Below are positions 209 to 61,769 of a DNA stretch of 64,000 bases, in pieces. Below the pieces are notes generated by a model. The model ran no database searches. It had not been told where the DNA came from and saw only the letters and a list, made by a program, of their open reading frames with translations. Location of the stretch: contig DATDZA010000017.1 in NCBI GenBank assembly GCA_035288865.1, positions 12,672 to 76,671 on the forward strand. Reading direction: 5' to 3'. A program made the translations under genes and the position numbers. The stretch's first letter is position 1, and every line of letters starts with the position of its first letter. The DNA is from Candidatus Nanoarchaeia archaeon (lineage in GTDB: Archaea; Nanobdellota; Nanobdellia; Woesearchaeales; GW2011-AR4).

Positions 209-303
209 GATTTGCCTCTTTTTTTGATTTAATTAATGATGTTGTTTTTAAAACTTTTGAAAAATAATTTTTTGAAATTCTGCACTTGATATTTCACTTG
301 ATT

Positions 304-370
304 GGATGGGTGGCAATTAGCTAAACTTTTTATGTAATAATAAAATTTTTCCCTCCATTAAGGAATTATC
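304..370. repeat. Bipartite ~70-bp intergenic element, copy A
   Basis: TGGGTGG at 307-313, 35 nt, then TTCCCTCCATTAAGGAATTAT from 349; same layout at 24591, 58608 and 61653. Confidence 0.75.
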
Positions 371-398
371 TCTTTCTTTATATTTTTAGATTATTTTT

Positions 399-2867: not shown

Positions 2868-5800
2868 ATGGGGATATGGGACAGTTTTAAAAGAGGATTT
2901 AGAAAGGGAAAGGCAGGCAGTGCAAATAATGCTGCAGCAAATAATCAGCAAGCTGCATCCAATCAACAAAATGATAATTCTATGGATAACCAAAACTCAC
3001 AAAGAAGTGTACCCACTTACATTACCAACGTTATAAAAGGACCATCAAAAGGTTACCTATGGCTCATAATCCTACTTTTTGTTATTGTAATTGGAATACT
3101 TTGGTATAAGAGTGCGCTAAGGCCAGTATTAATCTGGCTGTTGACTTATGGTGGACTTATGGCACTTTGTGGATTTATTTTATGGGGACTTCTAGATGGA
3201 ATAAAAGAATCAGCTCAGGGAAAACCTGACGGATTGACAAAATTATTCATTTCTTTGGCTTTAGTAATCTGGCTCGTTGACATGATACCTCCTAATTTTC
3301 CGGTAATAGGTAGATGGCTTGGTCAGCCATATGCTGGGTTTGAAATTTCATCCAGTGGATTATTGAATATTTCTTTGGTTCCAGTAATAACCTCTTCATT
3401 TATGTTTATATGGTTGTACATAAACATGGTTAAAAACATAGTCAAGCACGAATATGTTAGTTTTGGGCTCGGTTTTATCTCAATACTTATTATAAACAAT
3501 TTTATAAAAAGATTTTTTCCCACATCCGCAAATTGGGGTTTTAGTATTTATCTTCCAACTTGGCAAGGCATTTGGGCCATACTATATTATGTTGGGATAG
3601 CAGCTTTATTTGTTGGTTTAATTATACTCGCAATCTATTTTGATAGGAAAAAAAGTCAGGAATTTCCAGGATTCTTTTCTTATTTCTTTATGATAACAGT
3701 TTTTTCATTTTTCTGGATAAATAATGGGTGGCAGCAAAATCCAAGAGCAGTATTGCACGCAATTTTTATCATAGCCTTTGGTTTTGGTTATATTAAAACA
3801 CACGAAGAAAATCCAGTTGTATGGCATATACTGATTCCCTTATTGTTGATAGTGGATTTCTATGGCTACGGGTTATTATGGAATTTGGGATATCTTTGGG
3901 CTAAATTTATTCCCATCTTTATTGTATTTGTAATCTCATATTGCTATCACAAAACAAACAGTGGTTTCGCAATATTAACATTTATAGTTCTTGTTACTGT
4001 GATACTTATCTTAAGTCTGGACGTAACAGCTTATGCCGAATCTGGAGCATTTGATTACAAAGCACAAAGCGGTGGTGCCGATTTCACACAATTTTTTGGT
4101 ACGCTGAGCAAAAACACAAAACTCCTCATTGAAAGGCAATTAGTATTCGCAACAGGCGGATTATATAGAAGCCAGGTCGAATTAAATCAATATGCGCCGC
4201 TTGGAGTCTTCTTTAAGAATATTCGGGCAGCGCAGCCGAAATTCTATGATGACGAGCCTGTTACAATTTGGGCTACGATTAGCGCTAGAACTTTAAGCGA
4301 GCCGGTGAATGTAAGTTTTAAGTGTTATAGGAAGAGCGGCAACGAACGGATAGAAGAATTACAGAATCAGGCCTCACAGTCTGGCAAATTTGAAGTATCA
4401 ACTTACGAGGAAAGGGACGTCGAATGTAATTTTCAGCAGAGTCCGAACCTTAAAAAATTTGAAGTCGGCTCAAGCAATAATATAATTTTATCCTTAACTT
4501 ACAATTTTGCAACAAGCGCTTACCAAAAAATGTATTTCATTGATAGAGACAGATTGCGGGCGCTGACACGTGAAAATATAGACCCTTTGAAGCAATATGG
4601 AATTACCGACTTAAGCAGTTCGTCTTCACTTGATGATACAAGTAGTGGGCCCGCGGCAGTCTATACAAACGGGCCTGTTGAAGTTGCTACGCAGGTGCAA
4701 AAACTTGTTCCAGTTGATAAAGAGCCAACCGCAGTAGCATCGGTTCTGCTTGGCATACTTCTTCAAAACAGAAACCAGATTTCAGATAAGAATGGCCAGC
4801 CAATAGGCGAATGGGAAGGAAAAATAAACAAGATAAATCAATTGGCTGTAATACTTCCCCCCGGGATTACTATTCCTCATTTTGATCCTTCAAATCCGAA
4901 TAGCGTTAAAAACTGTAATCCTATAAATTTTAAGGAGTATAGTAAGACTGATTGTATATCAGAGTGTATAAACCTTGATGTTGAAGGGAAGAAGAAATGC
5001 GAAAATGAATGCACTTCGCTTTTCAGAGATGACAGCAGCGGCCGTGACACCTACACCGGATATCAGCTTGACGTGAGTCAAATTAGAAATAATACTGAGG
5101 TTAGGGACATCGACCGCTACAAGACTTTCACATGCAGATTAACAGTTTCAAAAGATGTGCTTGATAATACACCAATCACAACAAAATTCATCAGGATAAG
5201 GGCTAAATATGATTATCTAATCGAAAAATCCTACGATGTTGTTGTTGAAAAAGCGCCGATACCTTATGATGAGTATGGCCCGTCAGAAACCGGGTATACT
5301 CCATTTGGGGATGAGGGTACAGACCAAAGAAACGAACCAGATGTTGCCGCGACAGATACGGAAATTGATGCTTACCTAACCTATAAGAAATCTCCCTTGC
5401 AGGGCATAGGCCAATGCATGGAAAATGCTAAAAATAGAACAAAAGTTCCAACAGCAGTCATGGTAAGTGTTGCGTTGCTTGAAAGCAAGAAACCAAAAAC
5501 AACCGGCTTTGGCACTCTGTCAGACCTCGCAACACAATCAAAGAATTTGTTTGGTGTGAAATGTACTCCCAATTGGATTACAAAAAAATGTCCAACTCCT
5601 AACGAGGGTGATAAATGCTGCAGGACGTACGATAAATCCGACCTTGACAAAAAATATGAGCCAAATGCCCCGAATAATTATAGAATTTATGTAAGTCGAT
5701 GTGCTTCGGTAAATGATTTTGCCGACATTATAAGTAAAGAAAGTAGATATAGAAGTGCTATGGGTTCTACAAATGATCCAGAGACCATGATAACAAAAAT

Positions 5801-5909
5801 AGGGGCGGCAGGATACGCAAGCGATACTGAATGGGCCACTAAAATTAAATTAATGTATAGAGATTTACAGAAATACTTGTCCACGCGTTCAATAACTGCA
5901 CAAACATAA
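2868..5909 (+). CDS. Polytopic membrane protein with an extracellular domain and a C-terminal GH73 (glucosaminidase/FlgJ-like) peptidoglycan-hydrolase domain
   Basis: About 10-11 hydrophobic segments in aa ~55-390. The C-terminal ~170 aa contain VALLES (catalytic Glu), SKNLFGVK, YRIY.S..SV.DF..II....RY and AGYASD.EW..KI, matching the GH73 motif order (ES...NLFGIK...Y.S...D...GYATD). Confidence 0.8.
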   Translation: MGIWDSFKRGFRKGKAGSANNAAANNQQAASNQQNDNSMDNQNSQRSVPTYITNVIKGPSKGYLWLIILLFVIVIGILWYKSALRPVLIWLLTYGGLMALCGFILWGLLDGIKESAQGKPDGLTKLFISLALVIWLVDMIPPNFPVIGRWLGQPYAGFEISSSGLLNISLVPVITSSFMFIWLYINMVKNIVKHEYVSFGLGFISILIINNFIKRFFPTSANWGFSIYLPTWQGIWAILYYVGIAALFVGLIILAIYFDRKKSQEFPGFFSYFFMITVFSFFWINNGWQQNPRAVLHAIFIIAFGFGYIKTHEENPVVWHILIPLLLIVDFYGYGLLWNLGYLWAKFIPIFIVFVISYCYHKTNSGFAILTFIVLVTVILILSLDVTAYAESGAFDYKAQSGGADFTQFFGTLSKNTKLLIERQLVFATGGLYRSQVELNQYAPLGVFFKNIRAAQPKFYDDEPVTIWATISARTLSEPVNVSFKCYRKSGNERIEELQNQASQSGKFEVSTYEERDVECNFQQSPNLKKFEVGSSNNIILSLTYNFATSAYQKMYFIDRDRLRALTRENIDPLKQYGITDLSSSSSLDDTSSGPAAVYTNGPVEVATQVQKLVPVDKEPTAVASVLLGILLQNRNQISDKNGQPIGEWEGKINKINQLAVILPPGITIPHFDPSNPNSVKNCNPINFKEYSKTDCISECINLDVEGKKKCENECTSLFRDDSSGRDTYTGYQLDVSQIRNNTEVRDIDRYKTFTCRLTVSKDVLDNTPITTKFIRIRAKYDYLIEKSYDVVVEKAPIPYDEYGPSETGYTPFGDEGTDQRNEPDVAATDTEIDAYLTYKKSPLQGIGQCMENAKNRTKVPTAVMVSVALLESKKPKTTGFGTLSDLATQSKNLFGVKCTPNWITKKCPTPNEGDKCCRTYDKSDLDKKYEPNAPNNYRIYVSRCASVNDFADIISKESRYRSAMGSTNDPETMITKIGAAGYASDTEWATKIKLMYRDLQKYLSTRSITAQT

Positions 5910-5913
5910 GACA

Positions 5914-6984
5914 ATGATAACCAAAAATATTATTTTATTTTTATTATTATCCATGTTTTTGATAGGATGCAATGCAGCAACCGGCAATAATAATAAAAAT
6001 CAGGCAGTAACTTTTACAGGAACCGATGGAATCACGGCAGAATTTGCAGCAAGTGCACCCGCAAAAACAGTTTTTGAAAATAGCTATTTTCCAATTTTAA
6101 TAAGAATAAGAAATATGGGTGCTTATTCAATTCCAAAAGATCCTGCAAATACGCAAGGCCTGATTACTATAGGCAGAGAAAAAGATTATGTGCCGATTCT
6201 TGAAATTGAAGAGAACAGCAGGCTTGCAAAAAACAGCGGCCCAGGTGACAATGAAATGACATTTTTTGTTGATGGCAAAAGCCAGATTAACCCAAATGGC
6301 GATGAATTGGTTGCATCCCTGAAGGCAAAAACAAGCAATCTTGACGCGCAAAGTGAACGGCGAATTTCAACTATTACTGCAAATTTATGTTATCCCTACA
6401 AGACAGCTCTGAGCACCACAGTTTGTATTGATCCAGACATAGAAGGCCTCCGCCCAGGAAAAAAAGTTTGTAAAGTTGCTGCCCAACCATTTGCAAATGG
6501 GCAGGGTGCGCCATTGGCGATAGTGAAAATTGAATCATCAATGCTTCCAGATGTAGACAATAATGTGATAAAGCCACAATTCATTATTTATGTTGAGAAT
6601 AGAGGACACGGAAATCCTGTAAATTTGGCAGGTTTCAGGAATGCCTGCAGAAATGATTTTGATATTAATGACCCAATCAATAATCGATGGAATGTCGCCA
6701 GTTTAAGGGCGTTTACAGCCGACGGCACAGGAAAAGTGCAGCTTATTTGCTGTCCAAATAAATTAGGTTATTGTCCCGATAATGACAAGGATCCAGTCAA
6801 TGTGGACAACTTTGCTGGATTTATAAGATTGAAAGACAATAAAGATTTTATCAGATGCACTTTCAAAAATGGCATACCAAAAACCTTTGACGCCTACACA
6901 TCACCTCTTCAAATAGAAATTGATTATGGTTATGTGCAAACCATTTCAACAAACTTTATTATCCAAAAGCCGCTTAAATACTAG
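5914..6984 (+). CDS. Lipoprotein, paralog 1 of a Cys-containing surface family
   Basis: Lipobox-like LIGC; motifs LCYPYKT..VCIDPD, GAPLAIVKI, IEIDYGY. Confidence 0.7.
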   Translation: MITKNIILFLLLSMFLIGCNAATGNNNKNQAVTFTGTDGITAEFAASAPAKTVFENSYFPILIRIRNMGAYSIPKDPANTQGLITIGREKDYVPILEIEENSRLAKNSGPGDNEMTFFVDGKSQINPNGDELVASLKAKTSNLDAQSERRISTITANLCYPYKTALSTTVCIDPDIEGLRPGKKVCKVAAQPFANGQGAPLAIVKIESSMLPDVDNNVIKPQFIIYVENRGHGNPVNLAGFRNACRNDFDINDPINNRWNVASLRAFTADGTGKVQLICCPNKLGYCPDNDKDPVNVDNFAGFIRLKDNKDFIRCTFKNGIPKTFDAYTSPLQIEIDYGYVQTISTNFIIQKPLKY

Positions 6985-7080
6985 AATTAACAAATTTTGA
7001 ATAAATAAAATGAAAAATATTTTTTAATTTTAAAGGACATTTCGACACCTTTAAATAAAGAAAATATAACTTAGATTAAA

Positions 7081-8178
7081 ATGAAAAAATCCAAAAATTT
7101 TATTATTATTGCATTTTTATTAATTTTTGTCTTCTCAATTTCTGCATGCAGCAATAAATCTTCCGACACCACATCAAAAGAAGAAGTAAGGGTAGGAACA
7201 CAGGGTATTATTGCAAATTTCCTGCCAAACAACCCCCCCGATAAATTACACGCGGAATCTGACAGTGCAAGAAACCAATTTGATGTCGTTTTGGAACTTA
7301 GAAACCAGGGGGCTTATCCTCAGCCTGAAGACTCAGCTGGCGGCTTGGGTGGCCCAAAGGGACGACTATATTTAAGCGGCTATGATCCTTATATTATTAC
7401 TTTGACACCAAAAGCACCCAAGAACGGGCAATCAGCCACAGGCGCGGATTTAAATCAGTTGGCTCTTGATGGAAAAAGCACAATCAATCCCAACGGCGGC
7501 CAGGATATTCTGGCATTTCAGGGCAGTATAGATTATTCTAAACTTAAAGTGGATAAATACGATGTCATTTTGCTTGCAACCGCATGCTACCAGTATCAAA
7601 CTGTGGTCGGCCCCACAGTGTGCATAGACCCCGACCCCTACACAACAGTAAACCAAAAGAAAGTATGCCAGGTTAAAGATACGGTACTTTCAAGCCAGGG
7701 CGCTCCAGTCGCTATTACTAGTATTATCGAAGAGGCCTTTGACCAAAAAACTCAGTTTAAAATAACAATAAAGAACGTCGGCGGTGGAGAAATCATCAAG
7801 AAAGAATCATTGGATAAATGCGACCCTTACGGAAAAAGTACGACTGCTGCAGGCTCGTCAAGTTCTGGCAAGATTGAGAGGGATGATTTGGACAAGGTGT
7901 ATGTCGATTTTGTGAAAATGGCAGATCGTGCAATAACATGCGGCCCATTCGCCGATGGCACCGTAAAAGGAACAAGTGGAAATTTGAGAATGATTAACGG
8001 CGAGGGATTCATAATATGCGAATTGCAGAAATCAAAAAGTGAATATTCTCAGACAAACACTGCTTACACAACCCCAATGGTGATTCACTTAACCTATGGT
8101 TATAGGACTTCCGTAATGCGTACAATGCAGATAATAAGAGAACCATCAAGCACGGGATCGCCAACTTCCAATCCTTAA
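7081..8178 (+). CDS. Lipoprotein, paralog 2
   Basis: ISAC lipobox; ACYQYQT..VCIDPD, GAPVAITSI, LTYGY. Confidence 0.7.
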   Translation: MKKSKNFIIIAFLLIFVFSISACSNKSSDTTSKEEVRVGTQGIIANFLPNNPPDKLHAESDSARNQFDVVLELRNQGAYPQPEDSAGGLGGPKGRLYLSGYDPYIITLTPKAPKNGQSATGADLNQLALDGKSTINPNGGQDILAFQGSIDYSKLKVDKYDVILLATACYQYQTVVGPTVCIDPDPYTTVNQKKVCQVKDTVLSSQGAPVAITSIIEEAFDQKTQFKITIKNVGGGEIIKKESLDKCDPYGKSTTAAGSSSSGKIERDDLDKVYVDFVKMADRAITCGPFADGTVKGTSGNLRMINGEGFIICELQKSKSEYSQTNTAYTTPMVIHLTYGYRTSVMRTMQIIREPSSTGSPTSNP

Positions 8179-8226
8179 ACAGAAAACTTTATATACCTAC
8201 ATCAAAATAAAATCAATTAAATTTAA

Positions 8227-8277
8227 AGAGAACTTTGAATAAATCATTAAGTTTATATATTTCGTTTAAAGTTCTCT
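8227..8277. repeat. REP-like hairpin element (long unit)
   Basis: AGAGAACTTTGAAT..TTTAAAGTTCTCT; its loop aligns with the reverse complement of the 2791-2842 unit (AATCATT.AAGTTT.TATATATTT). Confidence 0.75.
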
Positions 8278-8334
8278 AAGGTAGTTTTAACAAAATTGAT
8301 ATATTTTAAAATTACCAATTGAAAAGAGGCAAAA

Positions 8335-9351
8335 ATGAGTAAACAAAATTATATTCTTGCATTCTTGGTCATATTAGTTCTTTTTGTTTCATCATGCAGT
8401 GGAAAGAGCGGTGCATCAACCGGCAGCGCCCCAAGAACGCCTTTTATCGGCGGCACAGCCGGAATTACGATCAATTTTGAAAAGGACACGCCTCCTCCTG
8501 AAGTTACCGACGATGACACGTTTGGATTCAGGGCGATTATAGATTTGAAGAATGAAGGTGAGTACAGTGTTCCACGAGACGCAGTTAAGGTAAATCTTGT
8601 TGGATTTGATCCGGCAGACTTCGGAAAGTCATTTGATGATTTAAGGGATGTGCTTCCAGATGACAACCTTGATGCGAAGAGGAGAGATGCCGAGGGCAAT
8701 ATTTTAGAGGGCACGACAACTTATGCGCAATTCCCGAGAAGCGGCGATGATTTCATTCCAACGAAATTCCCCGGCAACACACCATTTACTTTTAGGGCAG
8801 ATGTATGCTATAATTACCAGACTCAGGCCGACGCCCAGCTTTGCATATTAAGGGATATGATTAACATCAGGCAGGATGCAATATGCATACCGACCCAAGG
8901 CAGAACAGTTTATAGTTCATCAGCACCAGTTCAGGTTGTAAATTTCAGGCAGAGTGTTATAGGGAAAGACAAGATATCATTTACATTTGATGTTGTATTA
9001 AGCGGCAATGTTGATGTCTTCTGGAGCAGGGAAAAGAGAAAGCCGGTAACTTTTGATGACGGCTGCCCGAGAAACCCAACTGCAAGAAGGGCAGTTGAAA
9101 ACAATGTCGGGGTTACCATAACTGAAATTCCTACGGATCCTTTGTTCTCTGAATTGAAATGCGGCGGCTTAGACGGCGGCTCAACAGGAGTTGTCAGGAT
9201 GATAAATGGTAGGAGATCAATTACATGCACAGCCTCGATTGTTCAGGACAGGCTTGACTTGGAGAAGACAGTCGGCATTTTGCTCGAGTATAATGTTCTC
9301 GACAACAAAGAAACTCAGGTTCTTATCAAGCACCTTGCAGAAGGGCCTTAA
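8335..9351 (+). CDS. Lipoprotein, paralog 3
   Basis: VSSC lipobox; VCYNYQT..LCI, SAPVQVV, LLEYNV. Confidence 0.7.
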   Translation: MSKQNYILAFLVILVLFVSSCSGKSGASTGSAPRTPFIGGTAGITINFEKDTPPPEVTDDDTFGFRAIIDLKNEGEYSVPRDAVKVNLVGFDPADFGKSFDDLRDVLPDDNLDAKRRDAEGNILEGTTTYAQFPRSGDDFIPTKFPGNTPFTFRADVCYNYQTQADAQLCILRDMINIRQDAICIPTQGRTVYSSSAPVQVVNFRQSVIGKDKISFTFDVVLSGNVDVFWSREKRKPVTFDDGCPRNPTARRAVENNVGVTITEIPTDPLFSELKCGGLDGGSTGVVRMINGRRSITCTASIVQDRLDLEKTVGILLEYNVLDNKETQVLIKHLAEGP

Positions 9352-9427
9352 ATTTTAAGATTTTATTTTTTTAAATTTATTTTCTCAATTTGATTTTATT
9401 AAATTAGCTGAAATCGAAACCAATAAA

Positions 9428-10390
9428 TTATTTATTTCCAACCAGCGCAAACTGGCTCAATAAAGCTTCTAACTGTATAAATTCATCGGAGCCTTCCGTC
9501 ATCCGAAATTCTATTTCGCCGCATTTCTCAATAAGAATCATCTTAGATTTATTATCTGTATCCAGATCAATAATCTCTTTCTGTATCTGTTTTATTACAT
9601 CAGAGCCTGCCAATCCATAAGTAAGCATCAAATCCAGTAATTTGTTTCTTGCATCAATAAATTTGTTCTTTAATGCCAATTCCAAAACTTCTTTTATCTC
9701 TTTCGGCTTTGCTATCGAAGCCATTGAATGCACCAAATCTTCTGTGATATGATTTTCAATTGCTCCCGCGCTTTGCAGAATATTTTCCAGCTTCCTGCAG
9801 TCGCCTTCTGAAACCTCATAAAGCGCCTCTTTAGCCTTATCGTCAATCTTCAGTTTTTCTTCCTTGGCAATGTTGTCTATAATTTCAAAAATTTCTTTTT
9901 TATCAAGCCTCTTGAACCTGAAAACAACACATCTGCTCTGGATTGGGTCAATTATTTTTGAAGAATAATTCGCAGACAGTACAAACCTGCACGTCTGAGT
10001 GTAATTCTCCATAGTTCTCCTCAAAGCCTGCTGTGCTTCTCTTGTTAAGGCGTCACATTCGTCTAGATAAATTATTTTGAAGGGAACATCCCCTATAGCC
10101 CTTGTTCTTGCAAAATCTTTTACTTTGTTTCTTATAATATCAATTCCTCTTTCATCTGAAGCATTCAGCTCAAGAAAATTCTGATGCCACAGGTCTTTGA
10201 AAAGTTTTTTTGCTATCACTAAAGCCAAGCTCGTTTTTCCTACACCGGCAGGCCCCGCAAACATCAAATGAGGCAGGTTCTTTTGCTCAACAAACGCCTT
10301 CACTCTTTTTACTATATCTTTCTGGCCCTTAATGTCAGAGAAATCACTAGGCCTGTACTTCTCGGTCCACAGAGATTTTTCTACATTCAT
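9428..10390 (-). CDS. rfcS: Replication factor C small subunit
   Basis: WTEKYRP, GPAGVGKT, ELNASDERG, DECD, SRC motifs. Confidence 0.97.
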   Translation of the reverse strand: MNVEKSLWTEKYRPSDFSDIKGQKDIVKRVKAFVEQKNLPHLMFAGPAGVGKTSLALVIAKKLFKDLWHQNFLELNASDERGIDIIRNKVKDFARTRAIGDVPFKIIYLDECDALTREAQQALRRTMENYTQTCRFVLSANYSSKIIDPIQSRCVVFRFKRLDKKEIFEIIDNIAKEEKLKIDDKAKEALYEVSEGDCRKLENILQSAGAIENHITEDLVHSMASIAKPKEIKEVLELALKNKFIDARNKLLDLMLTYGLAGSDVIKQIQKEIIDLDTDNKSKMILIEKCGEIEFRMTEGSDEFIQLEALLSQFALVGNK

Positions 10391-10437
10391 TTTTGATATC
10401 TGAGAAACACTATATTGTTTAAAAAGGTATTTATACC

Positions 10438-10833
10438 CTACTTTAGATTTTTGACATCTTTAATTATTTTCAAGTTTCTTATGGGAAGATAGAAAGTTAA
10501 TCCCAAAACTATGATCAGGAAAATTGAAAACAAATATCCCATTATTCCAATATTTAAGAAAGAATTCCAATTTTTGATGCCCTTCAAAGTATAAATAGAA
10601 TATATAACCATAATTAAAAATATAAATAATACAATATAATTTATTGCTAGTATACTTTTCAATTTATTAGCATCAATAATAGATGGAGTAATAAATCCAG
10701 GAACTTTAGAATTTACTTCTCGAAAACATTTTTTATGATACAGGGCAAGTATTGGAATGTTTATATGGCGCCAATAGCTTATAATTAAATCATTTCTAGA
10801 ATTTATAGGTTGTTTGCAGTTTTCGCATTTCAT
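10438..10833 (-). CDS. Small membrane protein with an N-terminal Zn-finger-like CxxC..HxxC
   Basis: MKCENCKQ...YHKKC, then two TM helices; start moved to MKCENC. Confidence 0.6.
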   Translation of the reverse strand: MKCENCKQPINSRNDLIISYWRHINIPILALYHKKCFREVNSKVPGFITPSIIDANKLKSILAINYIVLFIFLIMVIYSIYTLKGIKNWNSFLNIGIMGYLFSIFLIIVLGLTFYLPIRNLKIIKDVKNLK

Positions 10834-10850
10834 ATTGATTACTTTGTTAG

Positions 10851-11207
10851 TTACTGCTCGTTTACTTGCTTTTGGCACAAATCTTTTAGTAAATTAAGTT
10901 CGGCATCAGATACACCAAAACTTGGATCTGCAAGATTATTGCATATTTCAGGATCATTTTTATCCAAAGCAACTCCGATTATGCAGCCACCAACTGCAGC
11001 GGACCTTGCACCCGGCACAGCACCAACAATTCTACTGCAAAAAGAAACATCATTACTCTTTAATGCCATAGTCGTGAAACATAAGTCTTTCCTCATATTA
11101 CTCTTAAAATTTTCACATTTCGATGCCTCTGTATTATAAGATTTGGCGCACCCAGAAATAATAAAAATTCCTAAAACTAAGATTGAGAATAATAAAATTT
11201 TATTCAT
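10851..11207 (-). CDS. Cys-rich lipoprotein (hypothetical)
   Basis: MNKILLF...ISGC lipobox; repeated C...C motifs. Confidence 0.6.
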   Translation of the reverse strand: MNKILLFSILVLGIFIISGCAKSYNTEASKCENFKSNMRKDLCFTTMALKSNDVSFCSRIVGAVPGARSAAVGGCIIGVALDKNDPEICNNLADPSFGVSDAELNLLKDLCQKQVNEQ

Positions 11208-11330
11208 GTTTAATGTTAAAATGGATTTACATACATATAAATATATCGTTTGCAATTAAAAGTTATTCGAACTTAAAATCAAAAACTAAGAATGTTATTA
11301 TTTTTTAATCATTAACATAAAAATAAAATC

Positions 11331-11594
11331 TTAAATTATATCCTCTTCAGCAACAACCATGAAATCGCCGATTGCGATAACTGCGCTGAAAGGTATCAGA
11401 ATATGCCCTTCCTTGTCTTTTTCTAGCTCTAATTTCTCTGTGTAAGAAGTCGGATTATGAAGAACCATATGTATCAATTCGCCTGAGCGTGTCTCAAATA
11501 TAATATCGCCTACTTCGCCAAACCTCTTTCCTGTCTTTGAAACAACAGTCTTTCCAATCAGCTGCTTTGAGAATTTCTTATCGTCTTCCGGCAT
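11331..11594 (-). CDS. PRC-barrel protein
   Basis: LIGKTVVSKTGKRFGEVGDIIFETRSGEL...IPFSAVIAIGDFMVV. Confidence 0.9.
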   Translation of the reverse strand: MPEDDKKFSKQLIGKTVVSKTGKRFGEVGDIIFETRSGELIHMVLHNPTSYTEKLELEKDKEGHILIPFSAVIAIGDFMVVAEEDII

Positions 11595-11718
11595 TTTCTT
11601 CCCTCTTAAGTTAATACGAAATATTGTTGGGCAGGTTGTATTTAAATTTATCGAAAATGCCCCGCAATATGGTCTAATTTTCTATATAATTATTGTCAAA
11701 TTACCTTATAATCGCCAC

Positions 11719-12573
11719 TTAGGCTAACATGTTGTTTATCTTCAATAATTTGTTCATTTCTTCTTCATTGTAGCAAGTTTCCCTTAATCCGCATTTAACA
11801 CATTTATTCTCATTATTGCAGAAATCCGGCAAATTCTTGTTTTCCAATAGACCAATTACTTCATTTACTATTTGCCTTACCTCATCCTTCATGAAAGGAT
11901 TTATTGCAATGTGCCTTTTTTCTTTTGTGTCAAGGTAAAAAACAAACCCCTCCTTTATCGGCTTCCTGAATTTTTCCTGCAAAAGCATGGAGTAAGCTGC
12001 TATCTGTATGCGGTGCGAAGGCCATACGCCTGAATATGGGGCCCTTCCTGTTTTCAGTTCAAACGGCACATAATCTTGCTCATAAACATGAACTTGGTCA
12101 ATTATTCCTTTTAATTTCAATTCCTCTGACTCAACTCTCAGCTCTGACAAAATTTTCGGCGTCAGTCTCTGCCACAATTCATCTCCAAAAACATTATTTT
12201 TTAGTATGAAATCAAAAACATTTTTTGACCTTGTAACCGATTCTTCCATTATGAACGGGAATGATTTTCTATAAGCGTCAAGCATGTTTAAATTTATTTT
12301 CTTTAACCTGTCTTTGTTGTCCGCAATGCTCTTCCTTAGAAATTTCAGGTGATTTTGCTCGTATAATTGTTGCATTTCCGCAAATTCCATTTTTTTTGTT
12401 ATGGAAGTGACAATAAACTCTTCATTCTTGTTTATCTTGTCATAAGTCTCGTGCCTTATGCTTCCCATAACCAAAGACTCCTTGGGCGGCTCTGCCTGCA
12501 TCAAAACTTTTTCAAGAAACAGCTTTCTGGAGCAGTACAGGTAGCTGGACAACAAAGTAACAGAGATTTTCAT
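11719..12573 (-). CDS. cas4: Solo Cas4-like Fe-S RecB-family exonuclease
   Basis: YLYCSRK, G.IRH, KGIIDQV, PFELKTG, QIAAY and C-terminal C..KC.KC...C (four-Cys cluster). Confidence 0.85.
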   Translation of the reverse strand: MKISVTLLSSYLYCSRKLFLEKVLMQAEPPKESLVMGSIRHETYDKINKNEEFIVTSITKKMEFAEMQQLYEQNHLKFLRKSIADNKDRLKKINLNMLDAYRKSFPFIMEESVTRSKNVFDFILKNNVFGDELWQRLTPKILSELRVESEELKLKGIIDQVHVYEQDYVPFELKTGRAPYSGVWPSHRIQIAAYSMLLQEKFRKPIKEGFVFYLDTKEKRHIAINPFMKDEVRQIVNEVIGLLENKNLPDFCNNENKCVKCGLRETCYNEEEMNKLLKINNMLA

Positions 12574-12595
12574 TAGACTTATACTTCAGAATTGG

Positions 12596-12627
12596 TTTAT
12601 AAAGTTTACGTGAAGATGTCCAGTGGT
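12596..12627 (-). promoter_or_regulatory. Conserved 19-bp upstream motif + BRE/TATA of cas4 (copy 1)
   Basis: Minus strand ACCACTGGACATCTTCACG-TAAAC-TTTATAAA, 22 nt before the cas4 ATG. Confidence 0.7.
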
Positions 12628-12651
12628 TTATTAGACATGTAAAATATGCTG

Positions 12652-12852
12652 CCAACAACAAGAATGGCAGGCAAACACGGATTTTCTCGGTGAAAATCCT
12701 ACTCACAAAGGATTTTTCCCAACTTCGTAAGGAAAAATCCTCTGCATTCGATTTGCCGCCATTGTTGTTGGACGAAAACTGAGTGGAGAACAAAAATCAG
12801 TTACGAAGTTCTGATTTTTGTTTTCCGAATAGGGTTTTCTTCAAGAAAACCC
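12652..12852 (+). ncRNA. Candidate structured RNA (multi-stem, kissing loops)
   Basis: Long closing stem 12652-12675/12752-12771; hairpins 12679-12699, 12709-12741, 12785-12826 and 12832-12852. Loops 12721-12730 and 12801-12810 are perfect reverse complements. A G-U pair favours the + strand. Confidence 0.5.
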
Positions 12853-12958
12853 GTGTTTGAGTCCATTGTTATTTTTGATGACAATTAAATTCTGCACTTT
12901 TACTTTTTAATTATACAAACCACAACCTTTATATTCTACTTATTCCAAGAATTAATCT

Positions 12959-13216
12959 ATGAAAGAAGGAGCTTTTATAGGGGCCGTTATAGCCTTGTTG
13001 ATTTATATAATGCTGCCAATCTATGGCGATAATGGAACGCCGGCAAGCGTTTTTCCGACAGCTCAGGTAGTTTCTGACACGAATTCTTTTGACGGCTATG
13101 TCTCAAATCTGCCGTTCAGCACAATGATATTCTTTGCTTTGGAAATAATGGGAGTTTCTCTTGGCATAGGAGCCCAGATGATATTCAGGAAAGTATATGA
13201 GCCAAAGCAGCAATAA
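12959..13216 (+). CDS. Small two-TM membrane protein (hypothetical)
   Basis: ORF with TATA (CTTTATAT) about 25 nt upstream; hydrophobic ends. Confidence 0.6.
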   Translation: MKEGAFIGAVIALLIYIMLPIYGDNGTPASVFPTAQVVSDTNSFDGYVSNLPFSTMIFFALEIMGVSLGIGAQMIFRKVYEPKQQ

Positions 13217-13337
13217 AGATTTTTTTCTAAAATTATTTTATTTTTGATTTATCATAATACATCTTATTTATGAATTTTAATTTTTATTGTAATTTTGTTT
13301 GTAATGCGCAGATTTTATAGAATATAAAATTCTTATT

Positions 13338-13376
13338 GAGAATTTTGAAATATATCCATTTTGTCAAAGTTCTCTA
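13338..13376. repeat. REP-like hairpin element (short unit)
   Basis: GAGAATTTTGA..TTGTCAAAGTTCTCT, homologous to 2750-2790 and to the reverse complement of 27935-27972. Confidence 0.7.
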
Positions 13377-13471
13377 TTCTAAAATTTAAATAAAGAAAAT
13401 CAAGATTTTCTAATTTAAAGGTCCACAAATAAAGATTTGCGACACCTTTAAATATTCATAATTAAAATTAC

Positions 13472-14551
13472 TTGCTTATGGACACTGAAAATAAAATAAG
13501 CCTAATTAAGCAAGTTGGCGAGGAAATAATCACAGAAGAAGAATTAAGAAATCTTTTGCAGACAAAAGAGCATCCAATCGCTTATGACGGCTTCGAGCCA
13601 AGTGGCCAAGATGTTCACATTGCACAAGGAATTCTGAGGTCCATTAACATTAACAAGATGACCAAAGCCGGCGTCAAGTTCAAGATGCTTGTCGCTGACT
13701 GGCATGCGTGGGCAAATAACAAAATGTCCGGCGATTTAGGAAGAATACAGACTGTAGGGAATTATTTGATTGAAGTATGGAAGCATTGCGGAATGGATTT
13801 AAAGAATGTTGAATTTATTTGGGCAAATGATTTTGTTAAAGACACAGATTACTGGAAAAAAGTAATGCAGGTTTCAAGGAATTCAACCGTCAACAGAATA
13901 ATAAGGACTGGCCAGATAATGGGCAGAAAGGAAGCAGATGTGCAGCAGGCTTCTCAAATTTTGTATCCCTGCATGCAGTGCGCTGATATTTTCCAGCTAA
14001 AAGCAGATATTACTCAGCTTGGGATGGATCAAAGGAAAGTTAATGTTTTGGCAAGGGAGCTTGGCCCTTCTTTGGGATTCTGGAAGCCGGTTGTTGTTTC
14101 ACATCATATGCTGATGGGGTTAGGGGAGCCGCCGAAATCAAAAGACATTGACAGAGTAATTGATTTGAAAATGTCTAAGTCGAAGCCGGACACTGCAATT
14201 TTTATGAATGATTCCGAAGAAGATATCAAGAGAAAAATTGGAAAAGCATATTGCCCTGCAAAAGTCACTGAAGAAAATCCGATGCTTGAATATTCAAAAT
14301 ATTTAATTTTTGAAAAATTCAATGTGATGGAATTCAAAAGGCCGGAAAAATTCGGCGGAGATTTAATCGTTGAAAATTATAAAGAATTAGAAAGATTATA
14401 CGCTGAAGGAAAACTTCATCCAATGGATTTAAAGAATGCAGTTTCTCATTATATCAATGAAATGGTAACTCCCGTCAGGGAAGCTTTCCATAAAGATGCT
14501 AAATTAAAGCATCTTCTTGAGACGATTAGGAAGTTTGAAGTGACGAGATAA
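13472..14551 (+). CDS. tyrS: Tyrosyl-tRNA synthetase (archaeal type)
   Basis: YDGFEPSG, HIAQG (HIGH-like), YPCMQCAD, GMDQRK, KMSKS, LHPMDLK. Confidence 0.95.
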   Translation: MLMDTENKISLIKQVGEEIITEEELRNLLQTKEHPIAYDGFEPSGQDVHIAQGILRSININKMTKAGVKFKMLVADWHAWANNKMSGDLGRIQTVGNYLIEVWKHCGMDLKNVEFIWANDFVKDTDYWKKVMQVSRNSTVNRIIRTGQIMGRKEADVQQASQILYPCMQCADIFQLKADITQLGMDQRKVNVLARELGPSLGFWKPVVVSHHMLMGLGEPPKSKDIDRVIDLKMSKSKPDTAIFMNDSEEDIKRKIGKAYCPAKVTEENPMLEYSKYLIFEKFNVMEFKRPEKFGGDLIVENYKELERLYAEGKLHPMDLKNAVSHYINEMVTPVREAFHKDAKLKHLLETIRKFEVTR

Positions 14552-24508: not shown

Positions 24509-24585
24509 TTTGTTAAATTTTTTATTTTATGGTTTATTTTATTATAAACTAATGTTTTAATTAATGCACATGTTTTTTCCACAGC

Positions 24586-24652
24586 AAGGGTGGGTGGAGG
24601 GCGGATAAACAATACTTAGTGCAATTATTAAATTCCCTCCCTTAGGAATTAT
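24586..24652. repeat. Bipartite ~70-bp intergenic element, copy B
   Basis: AAGGG-TGGGTGG (24591-24597), 35 nt, TTCCCTCCCTTAGGAATTAT from 24633. Confidence 0.75.
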
Positions 24653-24676
24653 TTTAAAATGAAATTACAACTAATT

Positions 24677-46241: not shown

Positions 46242-46363
46242 ACGGCTGTGGTCTAGTGGTTTGATTCGAGCTTCCCACGATTTAAAAATCAGAAAAAGCT
46301 TGAGGTCCGGGTTCGATTTGTGCCAAGTGAGCATTTTGGTACACGCAAGTCCCGGCAGCCGTA
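46242..46363 (+). tRNA. tRNA-Gly(CCC) with introns at 37/38 (46278-46296) and 59/60 (46318-46349)
   Basis: Acceptor ACGGCTG/CAGCCGT-A, anticodon stem CGAGC/GCTTG, CCC at 46274-46276, T stem CCGGG/CCCGG. Both inserts fold as BHB-like motifs, and splicing gives the T loop TTCGATT. Confidence 0.9.
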
Positions 46364-52022: not shown

Positions 52023-53534
52023 TTAACTATTATGGTTAGAATTAATTATCTGTAGTCCAACAACTTCTCCAACACGTACAGGTACGGCGTTGCCAATATG
52101 AGCGCTAATTCTTGTCTGATTTCCTTCAAAAACATAGTTGTCAGGAAATGTTTGTAAGGCGGCAGCTTCTCTTAAAGATATGGCTCTATTTTGAATCGGA
52201 TGACCATATCTGCCATTACTTATACTATTACATTTACAGGTCAATGTAGGAGCAGGTTTATCCCATTTCATTCTTCCGTAAGTGTCTCCGTGTCCAGAGT
52301 GAGACTTGTGGCATTCAAGTATAAGCTCCTTTGGCCAGGATTCTCTGCCTCCACCATTTTTGGGCGTGTTTTTCAATCTCAACAAGTTGATTGGCATTAT
52401 ACTTCTGGCCGTATGATTGGGATATTTTGGATCATTGCCTCCAGCTTTAATAGATGGGTATTTGTAAATTGTATCCCTCACAGTTCTGAAAGGAATATTT
52501 TTCCCGTCATAAATCTTTCCCGGGAGTTTTATTTTTCCTTTTCTCGATGCTATTAACATAAATCTGGCTCTGCTTTGAGGAACGCCGTAATCCCTAGCAT
52601 TAATTATAGCGGGATCAAAATAGTATTGATTATCATTTAATATACCAATAAATCTGGAGTATGTTGAATTGCCACCCTTCTTGGTAAGCCCAGGAACATT
52701 TTCCACAAAAAGAAAATCTGGTTTACATTCGTCAACAATTCTTGCAAATTGGAAAAGAAGCGTGGCTCTTTTATCCGCATCTCCTTTGTTTTTATTTTGA
52801 GTCGAGAAAGGTTGACAAGGAGCGCAGGCGGCAAAAAGTAATTTTGATTTTTTCCTGTTTATTTTGAATCTTTTCAACAATTCTTGTCCCGAGATATTTG
52901 TGATATCTTCAGTCAGGAATTTTGCCCCAGGATTATTAAATTCATAAGTATTTTTGGCAGTCTCATCAATATCTATACCAGCCACTACATGTATGCCAGC
53001 GTTCAATAATCCTCTAGTAAGTCCTCCCGCTCCACAAAAAAAGTCTATTGCAACTATTTCTTTTTTTGGAATATCCTTAGATGATTTGATATTTTTTTTT
53101 ATTTTAAGGATGCAATCATCCAAATTATTTTCTATTTCTTGACCCCAAAATCTAAGAACTTTCCATCCTTGTAACCTCAGCTTAATATTTACCTCCTGAT
53201 CCCTTTTTATGTTTCCTTCTATTTTATTTATCCAGAAGGCTTTTCTTTTTTTGATTTGTTTTTTGTATTTTTTCCAATTATAGCCGTGCCAAAACTTGCT
53301 ATCGCAGAAAATAGCAACCTTTTCTTTTACTAAAACAAAATCTGGTTTTCCAGTTATGGGAAAATGTTTTTTGAATTTAATTCCAGCACCGAAAAGTGCT
53401 TTTTCGAATGTCTTTTCCATATCAGAACCGCGCGAAAATATGCGGGACATATTGAAGCTGATTTGTTCCTTGGTTCTACTTTTTCTTGTTGACATTTCTG
53501 ACCCATGATATTGATTAAAAATTTGTTGTATCAA
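52023..53534 (-). CDS. Fusion of Vsr (very-short-patch repair) endonuclease and DNA (cytosine-5) methyltransferase
   Basis: N-terminal MSRI..GKPD..AIFCDSKFWHG..FW..KI..N..RD..GWKVLRFW (Vsr). Then FFCGAGG (motif I), PCQPFS (IV), ENV (VI), QSRAR (VIII), R.ISLREAAALQTFP (IX), GNAV (X). Start is TTG 53534 or ATG 53495. Confidence 0.92.
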   Translation of the reverse strand: MIQQIFNQYHGSEMSTRKSRTKEQISFNMSRIFSRGSDMEKTFEKALFGAGIKFKKHFPITGKPDFVLVKEKVAIFCDSKFWHGYNWKKYKKQIKKRKAFWINKIEGNIKRDQEVNIKLRLQGWKVLRFWGQEIENNLDDCILKIKKNIKSSKDIPKKEIVAIDFFCGAGGLTRGLLNAGIHVVAGIDIDETAKNTYEFNNPGAKFLTEDITNISGQELLKRFKINRKKSKLLFAACAPCQPFSTQNKNKGDADKRATLLFQFARIVDECKPDFLFVENVPGLTKKGGNSTYSRFIGILNDNQYYFDPAIINARDYGVPQSRARFMLIASRKGKIKLPGKIYDGKNIPFRTVRDTIYKYPSIKAGGNDPKYPNHTARSIMPINLLRLKNTPKNGGGRESWPKELILECHKSHSGHGDTYGRMKWDKPAPTLTCKCNSISNGRYGHPIQNRAISLREAAALQTFPDNYVFEGNQTRISAHIGNAVPVRVGEVVGLQIINSNHNS

Positions 53535-53704
53535 TCTGTAGGACTCTTATAATTTTGATTTTCGAGATGTTTTTGCATTAGGCCTTCGATTACTTTGCTA
53601 GCATGTCTGCTTTTGTGGTAGTGTATAATAGAATAAATCTGGAAATCCTCCCAGATCTTTTTATCTATACTTAAGGTTACTTTTACTCTATCGGACTCTG
53701 GCAT
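53531..53704 (-). CDS. Ribbon-helix-helix (CopG/Arc-like) regulator, 57 aa, below the ORF-track cutoff
   Basis: Manual translation MPESDRVKVTLSIDKKIWEDFQIYSIIHYHKSRHASKVIEGLMQKHLENQNYKSPTD*; its stop overlaps the TTG of the Vsr-MTase ORF (TTGA). Confidence 0.7.
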   Translation of the reverse strand: MPESDRVKVTLSIDKKIWEDFQIYSIIHYHKSRHASKVIEGLMQKHLENQNYKSPTD

Positions 53705-53807
53705 GGATGTTATACATATATACTTATATAAATATTTAACTCATTTTATATATTAATTAATACATACTAGTTTATCAAATATATTTCACGACGACGAGGT
53801 GCCTAAA

Positions 53808-55301
53808 ATGATAGATTCAAAAGAAAATATAAGCTTATTTGGACAGAAGATAGGAAGAGTAGTGGCATTGGAAGATTCTCCTACGTTTGAAAAAGTCACT
53901 GTTAGGCTTGATGCTGGCCGACGAGTAAGACCTGGAGAATTACTAGTAGTTCCTTGTAATCTAGAAGGATCTCGCAAAGATTTCATAATCTTAAGAGTGT
54001 CTGGAGCCAGAGAATTCAACGAGTATGAAAATCCTATGGATAGTCAGGTCAGAGATATGTTTAATATGAACTCCGTAAGGGGCCGAGATGACCTTCTCAG
54101 AAAGTTTGTTCTTGCTGATACACAACCTTTGGAAATGGTATTGCAGGCAGAGGAAGAAAAACTCATAACTCAAGATCCCACTCAGCTTGTCCATTCTGGG
54201 ACAGAGGTATACAAATTAACCTCAGGTGTTGCTGGAAGCCTTCTTGGGTTTCCAGAGCCAGGAGGTCCATCTTCCATGGTGTTGGGTGATGTAGTGGGAG
54301 AATCTGGTATAAAGGTAGTTCTCGATGCTAACAAGTGTCTCCCCAGACATATGTTAATCGTAGGGTCAACTGGAACAGGAAAATCCTATTTCATTGGGGT
54401 CATTAGTGAAGAACTCCAAAGGCTAGGCATAAGGCACATTAACATCGATATCCATGGAGAAATGGTGAAAGCATCATCTGAGATGGGCGGTAGCAATGTC
54501 CTGCCTGGCAAAGAATTGACTGTAAAATTATCCTCGCTTTCGGAACCAGAAGTTATGGAAATGTTACCTATAACGAACGATCTCCACAAAGACATTGCAA
54601 TTAAAGCATTCTCGAATCTTAAAAAAACAGGAAAAGACTTTGGAATTCAGGAATATAAAGATGAAGCCAGATCAGTTGCTGTTTCCTATGGGTCTAAGCA
54701 AAATACAATGGATATCATGGATGCCAGGATTCAGACATTGGAAAGTATTTCTATCCTAGGCAAGGGTTACGATTGGATTACAGCTCTTGAAAAAGGAGGG
54801 GCTTTAGTAAATATAGATTGTAGGGAAATATCCAGCCATACAGAATTAAAAATAATTGTTGGTTCGGTGGCTAGAGAAGTAATGAATCTCAGAAAAAAGG
54901 AAAAAATTAAGGAATTAGTTTTATCTATGGACGAAGCTCATATGTTCTTGCCTGCAGGAGAAACGTCTCCGTCTTCCCATGTACTTGGAGAGTTAATAAG
55001 GTTTGGAAGACATCACGGAGTCGGAATTATTATTGCGTCGCAAAGTCCCAATGATATAGATAGAAGAATAGCAAAAATTACAAATACAAGGGCCTTTTTT
55101 GCTATAGAAAAAACAGAAATAGGATCGGTGACTGGATTACTGGCGGATACTCCAGAGGATATCATAGCTGCCTTACCCAGATTAAAAACTGGTACATGTT
55201 TATTAGTTGGTGCTAGAGATATTATTAAACATGCACAAATAGTGCAGGTAAGGAAAAGAACATCTACTCATGGCGGCGAAACCCCAAAGATGATAAAATG
55301 A
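53808..55301 (+). CDS. HerA-family (HAS-barrel + FtsK/HerA) ATPase
   Basis: N-terminal IGRVV..beta barrel, RHMLIVGSTGTGKS, MDEAH, GRHHGVGIIIASQSP.DID. GAGGTG RBS before ATG 53808. Confidence 0.9.
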   Translation: MIDSKENISLFGQKIGRVVALEDSPTFEKVTVRLDAGRRVRPGELLVVPCNLEGSRKDFIILRVSGAREFNEYENPMDSQVRDMFNMNSVRGRDDLLRKFVLADTQPLEMVLQAEEEKLITQDPTQLVHSGTEVYKLTSGVAGSLLGFPEPGGPSSMVLGDVVGESGIKVVLDANKCLPRHMLIVGSTGTGKSYFIGVISEELQRLGIRHINIDIHGEMVKASSEMGGSNVLPGKELTVKLSSLSEPEVMEMLPITNDLHKDIAIKAFSNLKKTGKDFGIQEYKDEARSVAVSYGSKQNTMDIMDARIQTLESISILGKGYDWITALEKGGALVNIDCREISSHTELKIIVGSVAREVMNLRKKEKIKELVLSMDEAHMFLPAGETSPSSHVLGELIRFGRHHGVGIIIASQSPNDIDRRIAKITNTRAFFAIEKTEIGSVTGLLADTPEDIIAALPRLKTGTCLLVGARDIIKHAQIVQVRKRTSTHGGETPKMIK

Positions 55302-58160: not shown

Positions 58161-58169
58161 ATTAATCGG

Positions 58170-58300
58170 CCTCCAAAGTTTTTTATTTCTACAAAGACTT
58201 TGGATTTTTAAGAAAAATAGAGTGTTAAGCGAAACTCCGTAAAAGGATTTTGATATAAATCAAAAGACTTAATTTGGGAGTTTTGCGTATTCTATTTTTC
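58170..58300 (-). promoter_or_regulatory. Structured 5' leader of the LAGLIDADG gene
   Basis: Nested stems 58212-58221/58291-58300, 58232-58238/58277-58283, 58248-58254/58259-58265. Hairpin 58172-58179/58197-58204 overlaps the GGAGG RBS. Confidence 0.45.
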
Positions 58301-58321
58301 AATTTTTAGAAGAGGAATTGC

Positions 58322-58353
58322 TTTATATATTATGCGTGAAGATGTCCAGTGGT
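58322..58353 (-). promoter_or_regulatory. Conserved 19-bp upstream motif + TATA (copy 3)
   Basis: Minus strand ACCACTGGACATCTTCACG-CATAA-TATATAAA, identical 19-mer to 12609-12627. Confidence 0.7.
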
Positions 58354-58367
58354 ACAGAATAAAAGAG

Positions 58368-58544
58368 TGCGGGGAAGAGGATTCGAACCCCTGAAGGCAC
58401 TAAGCCAGTAGATATCTCTCCTGCCATGTTTTTTGTCTAGCAGGTAGATAGGCCTAAGCTATCCGAAACGCCTTGAGTTTGGGTGAGTAAATCTCTACCC
58501 CGTAAAGCCCCATTTTAATGGTTTGGCCGCTCCGGCATCCCCGC
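58368..58544 (-). tRNA. tRNA-Leu(CAA) with three introns (58504-58522, 58479-58494, 58414-58471)
   Basis: Spliced product GCGGGGATGCCGGAGCGGCCAAACGGGGTAGACTCAAGATCTACTGGCTTAGTGCCTTCAGGGGTTCGAATCCTCTTCCCCGCA folds as a long-variable-arm tRNA-Leu. The D-arm and 30/31 introns have 4-bp BHB cores. Confidence 0.88.
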
Positions 58545-58602
58545 ATAGCTTTTAGAATAAGAATTTCATTTAAAAAGATTTGCACTTGAATGTCAAAGAA
58601 TC

Positions 58603-58661
58603 AAGGCTGGGTGGAGGGCAATAGTCTTGCAGAAAGTCCGACAAGAACATTCCCTCCCTTA
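58603..58661. repeat. Bipartite ~70-bp intergenic element, copy C
   Basis: AAGGC-TGGGTGG (58608-58614), 35 nt, TTCCCTCCCTTA from 58650. Confidence 0.75.
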
Positions 58662-58734
58662 TGATAAAGTTTAATTCTAACAATAACGGACATAAAACTA
58701 ATTTTAATTAACTTAAATTCAAAAGAAAAATATT

Positions 58735-61580: not shown

Positions 61581-61649
61581 ACCGCAAATTTAGATATTAT
61601 CTATAAATAAGTTTCTATGATTTAGAGCATTAAAAACACATACTTTACC

Positions 61650-61715
61650 GGGTGGGTAGAGTTTGGTTAAATCAAAGTGAGTAAAATAATGAAATTCATT
61701 CCATTAAGAAAATAA
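61650..61715. repeat. Bipartite ~70-bp intergenic element, copy D (more diverged)
   Basis: GGG-TGGGTAG (61653-61659), 35 nt, TTCATTCCATTAAGAAATAAT from 61695. Confidence 0.6.
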
Positions 61716-61769
61716 TGTTAGATGTTATTCTTACAAACATTTTTAAACGTCTTTATTTTCTTAAAAACT

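Follow-up and report, generated by a model that had tools for sequence, protein, structure and literature searches.

What are four short stretches of DNA that lie far apart on an archaeal chromosome, all on the same strand, and each set a G-rich block against a C-rich block at the same distance? The window analyzed here, the whole stretch of 64 kb with a G+C content of 35%, is a chromosomal segment of a DPANN archaeon. The neighboring genes are of housekeeping type and encode pelota, acetyl-CoA synthetase (acs), FEN1, a tRNA splicing endonuclease, PCNA, RNase J, RFC, ScpB and a PhoU-like protein; their closest homologs are labelled Woesearchaeota, Nanoarchaeota or Nanoarchaeia, and DNA of this type occurs in groundwater and soil metagenomes.

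The first-pass annotation of this DNA had described four same-strand, intergenic copies, and an exact pattern scan, shuffled controls and a covariance model all bear this out. TGGGTRG-N35-TTCMYTCC matches exactly at 307, 24591, 58608 and 61653 and nowhere else in the window, each time on the plus strand and each time between called genes. Dinucleotide-preserving shuffles give a chance expectation of 0.01 for this pattern against the four matches observed, and none of 100 shuffles contained four; relaxing the gap to 20-50 nt brought no further match in the window. The covariance model finds the same four sites, and its next-best match in the window scores 14 bits. The copies and their parts, with covariance-model scores, are as follows.

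Positions 270 to 372, plus strand: copy A, degenerate (56.2 bits), with a GCAC box at 282-285, the G-block GGATGGGTGG at 304-313, the C-block TTCCCTCCATTA at 349-360 and the tail AGGAATTAT, between the pelota stop at 399 and the acs start at 208, within about 140 bp of extra DNA.
Positions 24554 to 24656, plus strand: copy B, canonical (88.9 bits), with an ATGCAC box at 24564-24569, GGG-TGGGTGGAGGGC at 24588-24602, the loop box AGTGCAA at 24618-24624, TTCCCTCCCTTA at 24633-24644 and the tail GGAATTAT at 24645-24652.
Positions 24512 to 24676, no strand assigned: the inserted DNA that holds copy B, about 165 bp, between the stop of a 327-aa ORF at 24677 and the FEN1 start at 24508.
Positions 58570 to 58673, plus strand: copy C, canonical (76.2 bits), with a TTGCAC box at 58580-58585, TGGGTGGAGGGC at 58608-58619, the loop box AGTCC (one mismatch) at 58635-58639 and TTCCCTCCCTTA at 58650-58661.
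Positions 61615 to 61718, plus strand: copy D, decayed (58.4 bits), with a GAGCAT box at 61625-61630, GGGTGGGTAGAGTTT at 61650-61664 and TTCATTCCATTA at 61695-61706, in the divergent region between PhoU_div (60939-61580, minus strand) and a 210-aa gene (61722-62354, plus strand).

Copies of the element also occur beyond the window. The annotation's pattern, run against one genome per species, gave 24 matches, three of which, in two Nanoarchaeota MAGs, share the whole consensus. From metagenomes, the pattern TGGGTGGAGGG-N{16,46}-TTCCCTCCCTT returned 40 loci, of which 39 are clearly related and come from groundwater sites. That the likeness is due to chance, G-rich and C-rich tracts happening to recur in AT-rich intergenic DNA, has a negligible probability in our estimation. 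The conserved blocks are short, the one property of the sites that speaks for chance, and some matches are truly of this kind: 21 of the 24 genome matches, single hits in unrelated organisms (bacterial or other), and one of the 40 metagenome matches (L070, gap 45), which was discarded as a coincidence in GC-rich DNA. The shuffle statistics and the gap between covariance-model scores in the window contradict it, however, and the 39 related loci share the GCAC box, the AGTGC box and the GAATT tail, none of which, like the other extra conserved features, was part of the search pattern; chance likeness is thus refuted by the shuffles and by the existence of the family.

The conserved unit is about 100 bp long, and the extent assigned earlier (304-370, some 70 bp) was too short, since it left out the GCAC box about 25 nt upstream and the nGAATT tail downstream. 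The unit runs from the GCAC box (-26 to -23, conserved at 76-83% per position) through AT-rich, promoter-like DNA to GGG-TGGGTGGAGGGC, a loop of 29-33 nt that carries the AGTGC box, TTCCCTCCCTTA and the tail. In the upstream part, an AT-rich block at -21 to -12 is followed by A-C-A at -11 to -9 and GGG at -3 to -1; the consensus 3' of the C-block is C-T-T-A-n-G-A-A-T-T, and a run of at least five T follows within 30 nt in 16 of 41 copies. Among 43 distinct copies the spacing is 34 nt in five, 35 in 21, 36 in 11, 37 in five and 38 in one, so that only five values are used although the scan left the gap free over 31 (20-50 nt). The spacing is constrained, not invariant: the 35 nt once taken to be fixed hold for all four window copies and not for the family. 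Likewise, the interior had been seen as a partly conserved, drifting core. The loop is indeed variable, but simple drift does not describe it, as it keeps the AGTGC box and falls into discrete subtypes that recur across genomes. The absence of a conserved ORF was correctly noted, and a protein-coding reading of the element is rejected, since the spacing is not a multiple of three and certain copies contain stops (e.g., L016).

The four sites therefore belong to a real and apparently undescribed repeat family of groundwater Woesearchaeota/Nanoarchaeota, restricted, as far as sampled, to a subclade of them. Viral contigs contained no copy of the element, and nothing relevant was returned by Rfam, either at the gathering threshold over the whole window or at an E-value threshold around copy C, an L012 pair of elements (types II and I, see below) and the 12.5-13 kb region. 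The literature, searched by sequence and by topic, held no mention of these sequences and nothing else relevant.

Within the unit, the G-block and C-block are complementary (UGGG.GGAGGG with CCCUCC.CUUA, the stem predicted for copy B), and the G-run of copy B is one strand of this stem. In an alignment of 45 distinct sequences, which was fitted to the model and whose members are related, 96% of the cells pair and both partners have changed in five of the ten pairs, a level of covariation that is attained in none of 500 shuffles; slid controls are lower. Compensatory changes can also be found by eye: C-G replaces G-C in L056, the stems of a sister type (type II) read GGGAAC/GUUCCC and GGGGA/UCCCC, and in copy D, which keeps four of six pairs, one G-C has become U-A by a double change. 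Copy A has lost the GGAGGG strand to mismatches. Judged by this covariation, the G- and C-blocks pair as a stem, and because compensatory changes maintain the pairing, the element appears to be shaped by nucleic-acid folding and not by two independent protein sites. The folding energies are unexceptional (z = +0.7 for copy B and -1.3 for copy C). Many loops hold a small local hairpin that ends in AGUG(C), for example CACU-UUU-AGUG, and this hairpin covaries as well (CAC..GUG in L065, CUC..GAG in L060).

The type II elements are weaker matches to the model that stand back to back with many type I copies on the opposite strand. One form reads (G/T)TGCTC - AT-rich - AAGGTGT GGGAAC ... AAGAGCA ... 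GTTCCCCT(T/G)A and the other ...GGGGGT GGGGAAC ... AAAGAGCA ... CTCCCCCTTAA. At L012-type loci, two divergent elements have a single 6-bp box in common (GAGCAC, or GTGCTC on the other strand) with an AT-rich block on each side, and the type II member lies upstream of a ribB-like gene. This hairpin, GGTGTGGGAAC..AAGAGCA..GTTCCCCT (L012 3514-3615, minus strand), directly precedes the ribB-like (DHBP synthase) gene and is found in the same place in L018, L036, L040, L042, L043, L062 and L065; its loop is much better conserved than those of type I. The element gave no Rfam hit and could be a cis-regulatory leader.

In both types the box upstream and the box in the loop are reverse complements of each other, GCAC with GUGC for type I, GCUC with GAGC for type II and GCGCUC with GAGCGC for L060. 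Combinations across types are weaker (-6.6 vs -8.6 to -9.2 kcal/mol). Within a type, however, same-copy pairs match no better than permuted pairs (p = 0.23 and 0.45), so the complementarity goes back to only two or three independent events, and column-wise covariation within type I is weak. An RNA helix between box and loop is rejected on account of this weak covariation, the equality of permuted pairs and the position of the box outside the transcript predicted from promoter geometry. The complementarity between types is recorded here as a pattern that is unexplained.

How the copies came to occupy their sites can be read from relatives of the window. At site B the two flanking genes abut without a spacer in five of them (L071, L073, L074, L075 and L077), the FEN1 of L071 being 95% identical to that of the window; contig L049 has the same insertion, with flanks about 90% identical and a loop of a different subtype. 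Site C is empty in L078. There the intron-containing tRNA gene and its promoter match those of the window up to ...CATTTAAAAA; identity breaks off directly behind the TATA box of the tRNA, at a distance of 3 nt from the element box, and a different RNA-like segment stands in place of the copy. The gap between pelota and acs measures 190 nt in the window vs 50 nt, without the element, in L081. The 50-nt spacer finds its match in those 45 nt of the window gap that are next to acs, so that about 140 bp including copy A are extra in the window. Site D is occupied in L078 and L079 by canonical copies (GGGTGGGTGGAGGGC..TCCCTCCC) in the same divergent promoter region, with flanks about 85% identical. 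Copy D of the window differs from these at many core positions despite the similar flanks, and between L078 and L079 the loops have diverged far more than the DNA around them. On the evidence of these alignments, copies A, B and C are insertions gained at new sites, whereas copy D is, to judge from its orthologs, an old copy in decay; after its gain an element either stays canonical or decays, with a loop that is replaced or changes much faster than its flanks.

The density of the element also varies: four copies occur in the 64 kb of the window and a single one in about 42 kb of the nearest relative, and seven further contigs from relatives, about 124 kb together, have none. At 140-330 bp the inserted DNA is longer than the conserved unit, and it shows no homology from copy to copy. 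Unlike the members of a recent MITE burst, the four copies of the window have only termini and boxes in common, and no longer repeat family spans them. At the insertion borders of A and B, which are AT-rich, we found no clear terminal inverted repeats or target-site duplication, the candidates (TTTAAAAT at B and AAATAATYT at A) being short enough for chance; the G/C inverted repeat of the element is internal. A Pfam scan of 46 proteins of the window found no transposase. Several strains have orthologous copies whose termini are intact, at site D and at the ribB site (L012, L018, L036, L040 and L042-44).

Several other features of the window were recorded beside these sites. Two tRNA genes, at 58368-58544 (minus strand) and at about 46242-46363 (plus strand), have several non-canonical introns, and neither ARAGORN, whether or not introns were allowed, nor Rfam detected them; one of the two is class II-like, starting with GCGGGGAUGCCGGAGCGGCC and ending with GGGGUUCGAAUCCUCUUCCCCGCA, and the one at 58368-58544 differs in intron content from its L078 ortholog. 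Between this gene and that for a 259-aa protein lie about 200 nt of hairpin-rich non-coding DNA (58161-58360), without a counterpart in L078, which may be another lineage-specific insertion. The segment that occupies site C in L078 (about 8390-8530 there) is homologous to part of 12640-12870, a GC-richer non-coding stretch with hairpins and the long-range complementarity CCAACAACAAGAATGGCAGGCAAA ... TTTGCCGCCATTGTTGTTGG; this stretch had no Rfam match, and by its sequence features it is probably an unannotated structured RNA. Each copy of a 39-nt direct repeat (12589-12627 and 58315-58353, 87% identical, ...CGTGAAGATGTCCAGTGGT) is found a short way beyond the 3' side of an RNA gene or an RNA-like region on the minus strand. 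Elsewhere, 52023-57286 encodes a fused Vsr endonuclease/C5 cytosine methylase (503 aa, minus strand), followed by a HerA/DUF87-type ATPase (500 aa, plus strand), and a 662-aa protein without a Pfam match, a possible defense or repair island, and at 63131-63331 an 84-nt segment is repeated at a spacing of 117 nt (76% identical) in the C-terminal part of the ScpB-like gene.

The intergenic location of the window copies does not extend to the whole family, in which four of 43 distinct copies, on other contigs, lie antisense inside long ORFs. The L034 copy sits in an insertion of about 109 aa in an Elp3 homolog, between YQE and LSLKQ (relative to PDB 6IA8), a position at which the solved M. infernus Elp3 has 15 residues; the frame has one stop at the border of the insertion and is then open for 115 codons. 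In L066, an intein has a type I/type II pair between its N-terminal and C-terminal splicing blocks, and another copy lies inside a 532-aa ORF. The intein belongs to a giant ORF of more than 3300 aa (3823-13803, running off the contig end), in which Laminin_G_3 domains occur several times and intein-like regions at least twice. The sense strand of the element carries TAA/TAG and a T-run, so that only antisense insertions can leave the frame or transcript of a host gene intact. Such antisense-only tolerance, and not a chromosome-wide polarity, probably explains why all four window copies are on the plus strand, where the genes are mostly on the minus strand, and why the left neighbor is divergent in 24 of 33 cases.

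The AT-rich part of the element resembles an archaeal promoter, and two geometries fit. In one, a TATA-like tract is centered near -36 with a CA initiator near -10; in the other, the box takes the BRE position and is followed by a TATA-like tract and a T|G initiator inside TGGGT|GG, a geometry calibrated on the tRNA promoter of the window, where the TATA center +27 equals tRNA position +1. The two TATA placements make the transcription start ambiguous, and both leave the box outside the transcript. The genome does not seem to use GCAC as its general BRE: among the promoter words that recur, A(A/C)ACCTTTAAATA is the best, and both tRNA promoters carry GNAAAT. The recurring word occurs exactly at 7045 and 13442 and with one mismatch at 1481 and 33637, about 25-35 nt upstream of gene starts, which suggests leaderless or short-leader mRNAs and a BRE/TATA consensus for the organism. 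From the stem and the promoter-like DNA, the element probably encodes a small hairpin RNA of 55-75 nt. A search of RNA-seq data for three loci returned one unrelated run, which covered only the conserved 5' part of a tRNA. A guide function, tested within the window, is rejected, the longest complements of the loops there being equal to those of shuffles.

On balance, and with modest confidence, we favor the explanation that these are small mobile palindromic elements with a promoter of their own, which probably yield a hairpin RNA, and that the four sites in the window are members. Transcription from the element's own archaeal promoter would run rightward into the 55-75-nt RNA. The AT-rich left end could at the same time provide a new promoter for the adjoining leftward gene, so that insertion into an operon junction would be tolerated, and selection against the sense-strand stops and the T-run terminator would account for the antisense orientation to host genes. 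Spread would depend on a DNA-level mechanism supplied in trans, and ectopic gene conversion between copies could give rise to constant termini with swapped loops. Of the three readings in the first-pass annotation, that of a decayed MITE is partly right, in that mobility is indicated by the filled and empty sites at A, B and C and by copies in ORFs, and that A and D are decayed; B and C, however, are intact, and neither border repeats or duplications nor near-identical copies nor a transposase were found. Partly right, too, is that of a fixed-length sRNA with a handle-guide-handle layout. Its layout stands, the ends being constant and the loop variable, with promoter-like DNA in front and frequently a T-run behind, but the length varies and a guide has no backing in the loop complements of the window.

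It is also possible, though we consider it unlikely, that these are small regulatory or guide RNA genes of benefit to the host, whose gains and losses are ordinary gene turnover. In this case, hairpin handles would bind a protein and either the loop or the CCCUCC and GGAGG tracts, which resemble anti-Shine-Dalgarno and Shine-Dalgarno sequences, would pair with targets, by a logic like that of C/D-box guides or trans-acting sRNAs. The termini are identical at orthologous sites while the flanks diverge, loop subtypes recur across genomes, promoter-like DNA precedes the copies and a T-run follows, and a type II partner keeps a fixed place upstream of ribB in at least eight contigs; the orthologs with intact termini at the D and ribB sites are equally compatible with host function. 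Against an RNA gene kept for the host, the stem is degraded in two of the four window copies (A and D), copies interrupt or sit within coding sequence, close relatives do without A, B and C, with none at all in the seven further contigs, the loops have no complements in the window beyond those of shuffles, and the loop is unconserved between orthologs, unlike that of guides for conserved targets.

Alternatively, the element could act as DNA, as sites for a chromosome-organizing or regulatory protein or as interleaved divergent promoters, which appears decidedly improbable to us. If it served as promoters, the GCAC box and its inverted counterpart in the loop would be two sites of one factor, and the element would be mainly a portable bidirectional promoter or insulator. 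The box and loop box do form an inverted 4-6-mer that is specific to type (GCAC/GTGC, GCTC/GAGC, GCGCTC/GAGCGC), the distance from box to G-block is nearly constant, and at L012-type loci one box is common to two divergent elements; in addition, insertion B has cut FEN1 off from its former operon partner, so that FEN1 needs a new promoter. The covariation of the stem, however, favors folding of a single strand, the GC-richer L060 is without a TATA-like tract on the loop side, and the match of box and loop within a copy is no better than after permutation. The spacing of 34-38 nt in 43 copies also counts against it. This range weakens the two-site protein-binding DNA of fixed geometry proposed earlier, as does the finding that its two boxes are the strands of a compensated stem. 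A further reading, improbable in our view, would make the element a mobile small-RNA gene of a new archaeal kind, with a loop complementary to its own promoter or left-border box and the pair changing together between types. If so, a pseudoknot formed by the single strand could direct the cutting and insertion of the element, or its RNA could recognize the DNA of its own promoter, and copies would trade loops in the manner of cassettes.

The genomes of DPANN archaea are tiny and densely packed, and their repeats and non-coding RNAs are poorly known. As mobile palindromic elements, the copies described here would mean that such compact genomes still host an active small repeat, one that splits operon junctions, is found in an intein and in an essential-type gene (Elp3), and may come with a promoter. 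Its transcripts, if there are any, would make up a family of archaeal small RNAs not described so far, in which the handles are constant and the loop changes fast. The covariance model allows a direct census of the family and could also serve in a search for the protein that moves or binds the element.

Compared with known systems, the element is like archaeal C/D-box and H/ACA sRNAs in being multi-copy and intergenic in compact genomes, with 50-70 nt, constant ends and a variable interior. It has no RUGAUGA/CUGA or ACA box and no Rfam hit, and its interior is unconserved between orthologs; with C box (RUGAUGA) and D box (CUGA) absent from the consensus, membership in the C/D-box sRNAs was rejected. 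A tRNA or split/permuted tRNA was also rejected, as ARAGORN (with and without introns) found none, there is no T-loop GTTCRAAT, and the loop box is invariant and not anticodon-like. The constant blocks are inverted complements and not direct repeats, which rules out a CRISPR repeat-spacer-repeat, and an integron attC site fits neither in its RYYYAAC ... GTTRRRY cores nor with neighbors that are syntenic housekeeping genes.

IS200/IS605 ends, their PATE derivatives and REP/RAYT systems are hairpin elements handled as single strands, with a strong strand bias, in which a short internal guide of four nucleotides pairs with a border site of the element. The complementarity of box and loop, which changes jointly between types, is like this guide logic, but here the complementary partner is inside the loop, about 55 nt from the box; the protein scan of the window found neither a Y1/HUH transposase nor TnpB, and the element shows no defined cleavage sites. 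Correia elements (NEMIS) of Neisseria and other intergenic MITEs of bacteria (ERIC, BOX, RUP) are short non-autonomous repeats that insert beside genes and can form RNA hairpins and supply promoters. The present element is likewise a short repeat beside genes, with a hairpin and predicted promoter-like DNA, and is present at some and absent from other orthologous sites (A, B and C). In those bacterial repeats the terminal inverted repeats are clear, a TA target is duplicated and near-identical copies are numerous; nothing of this kind was found here.

Rickettsia palindromic elements reportedly measure about 100-150 bp, occur between genes as well as inside protein-coding genes whose frame they leave open, are patchy among close relatives and are moved by an enzyme that is said to be unknown. 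Compared by behavior only, the element described here is similar: a small palindromic repeat, patchy in close relatives, with intergenic copies and copies in ORFs with the frame open, as in the Elp3 homolog after its one stop and in the L066 intein and 532-aa ORF. It differs in its archaeal host, its promoter-like box and tail, its conserved G/C stem with a hypervariable loop and its strictly antisense orientation in ORFs. Sequence homology to the Rickettsia families is unlikely given the different domain of life, and membership in no named family is established; in its behavior, the element appears closest to the Rickettsia palindromic elements and to promoter-bearing bacterial MITEs.
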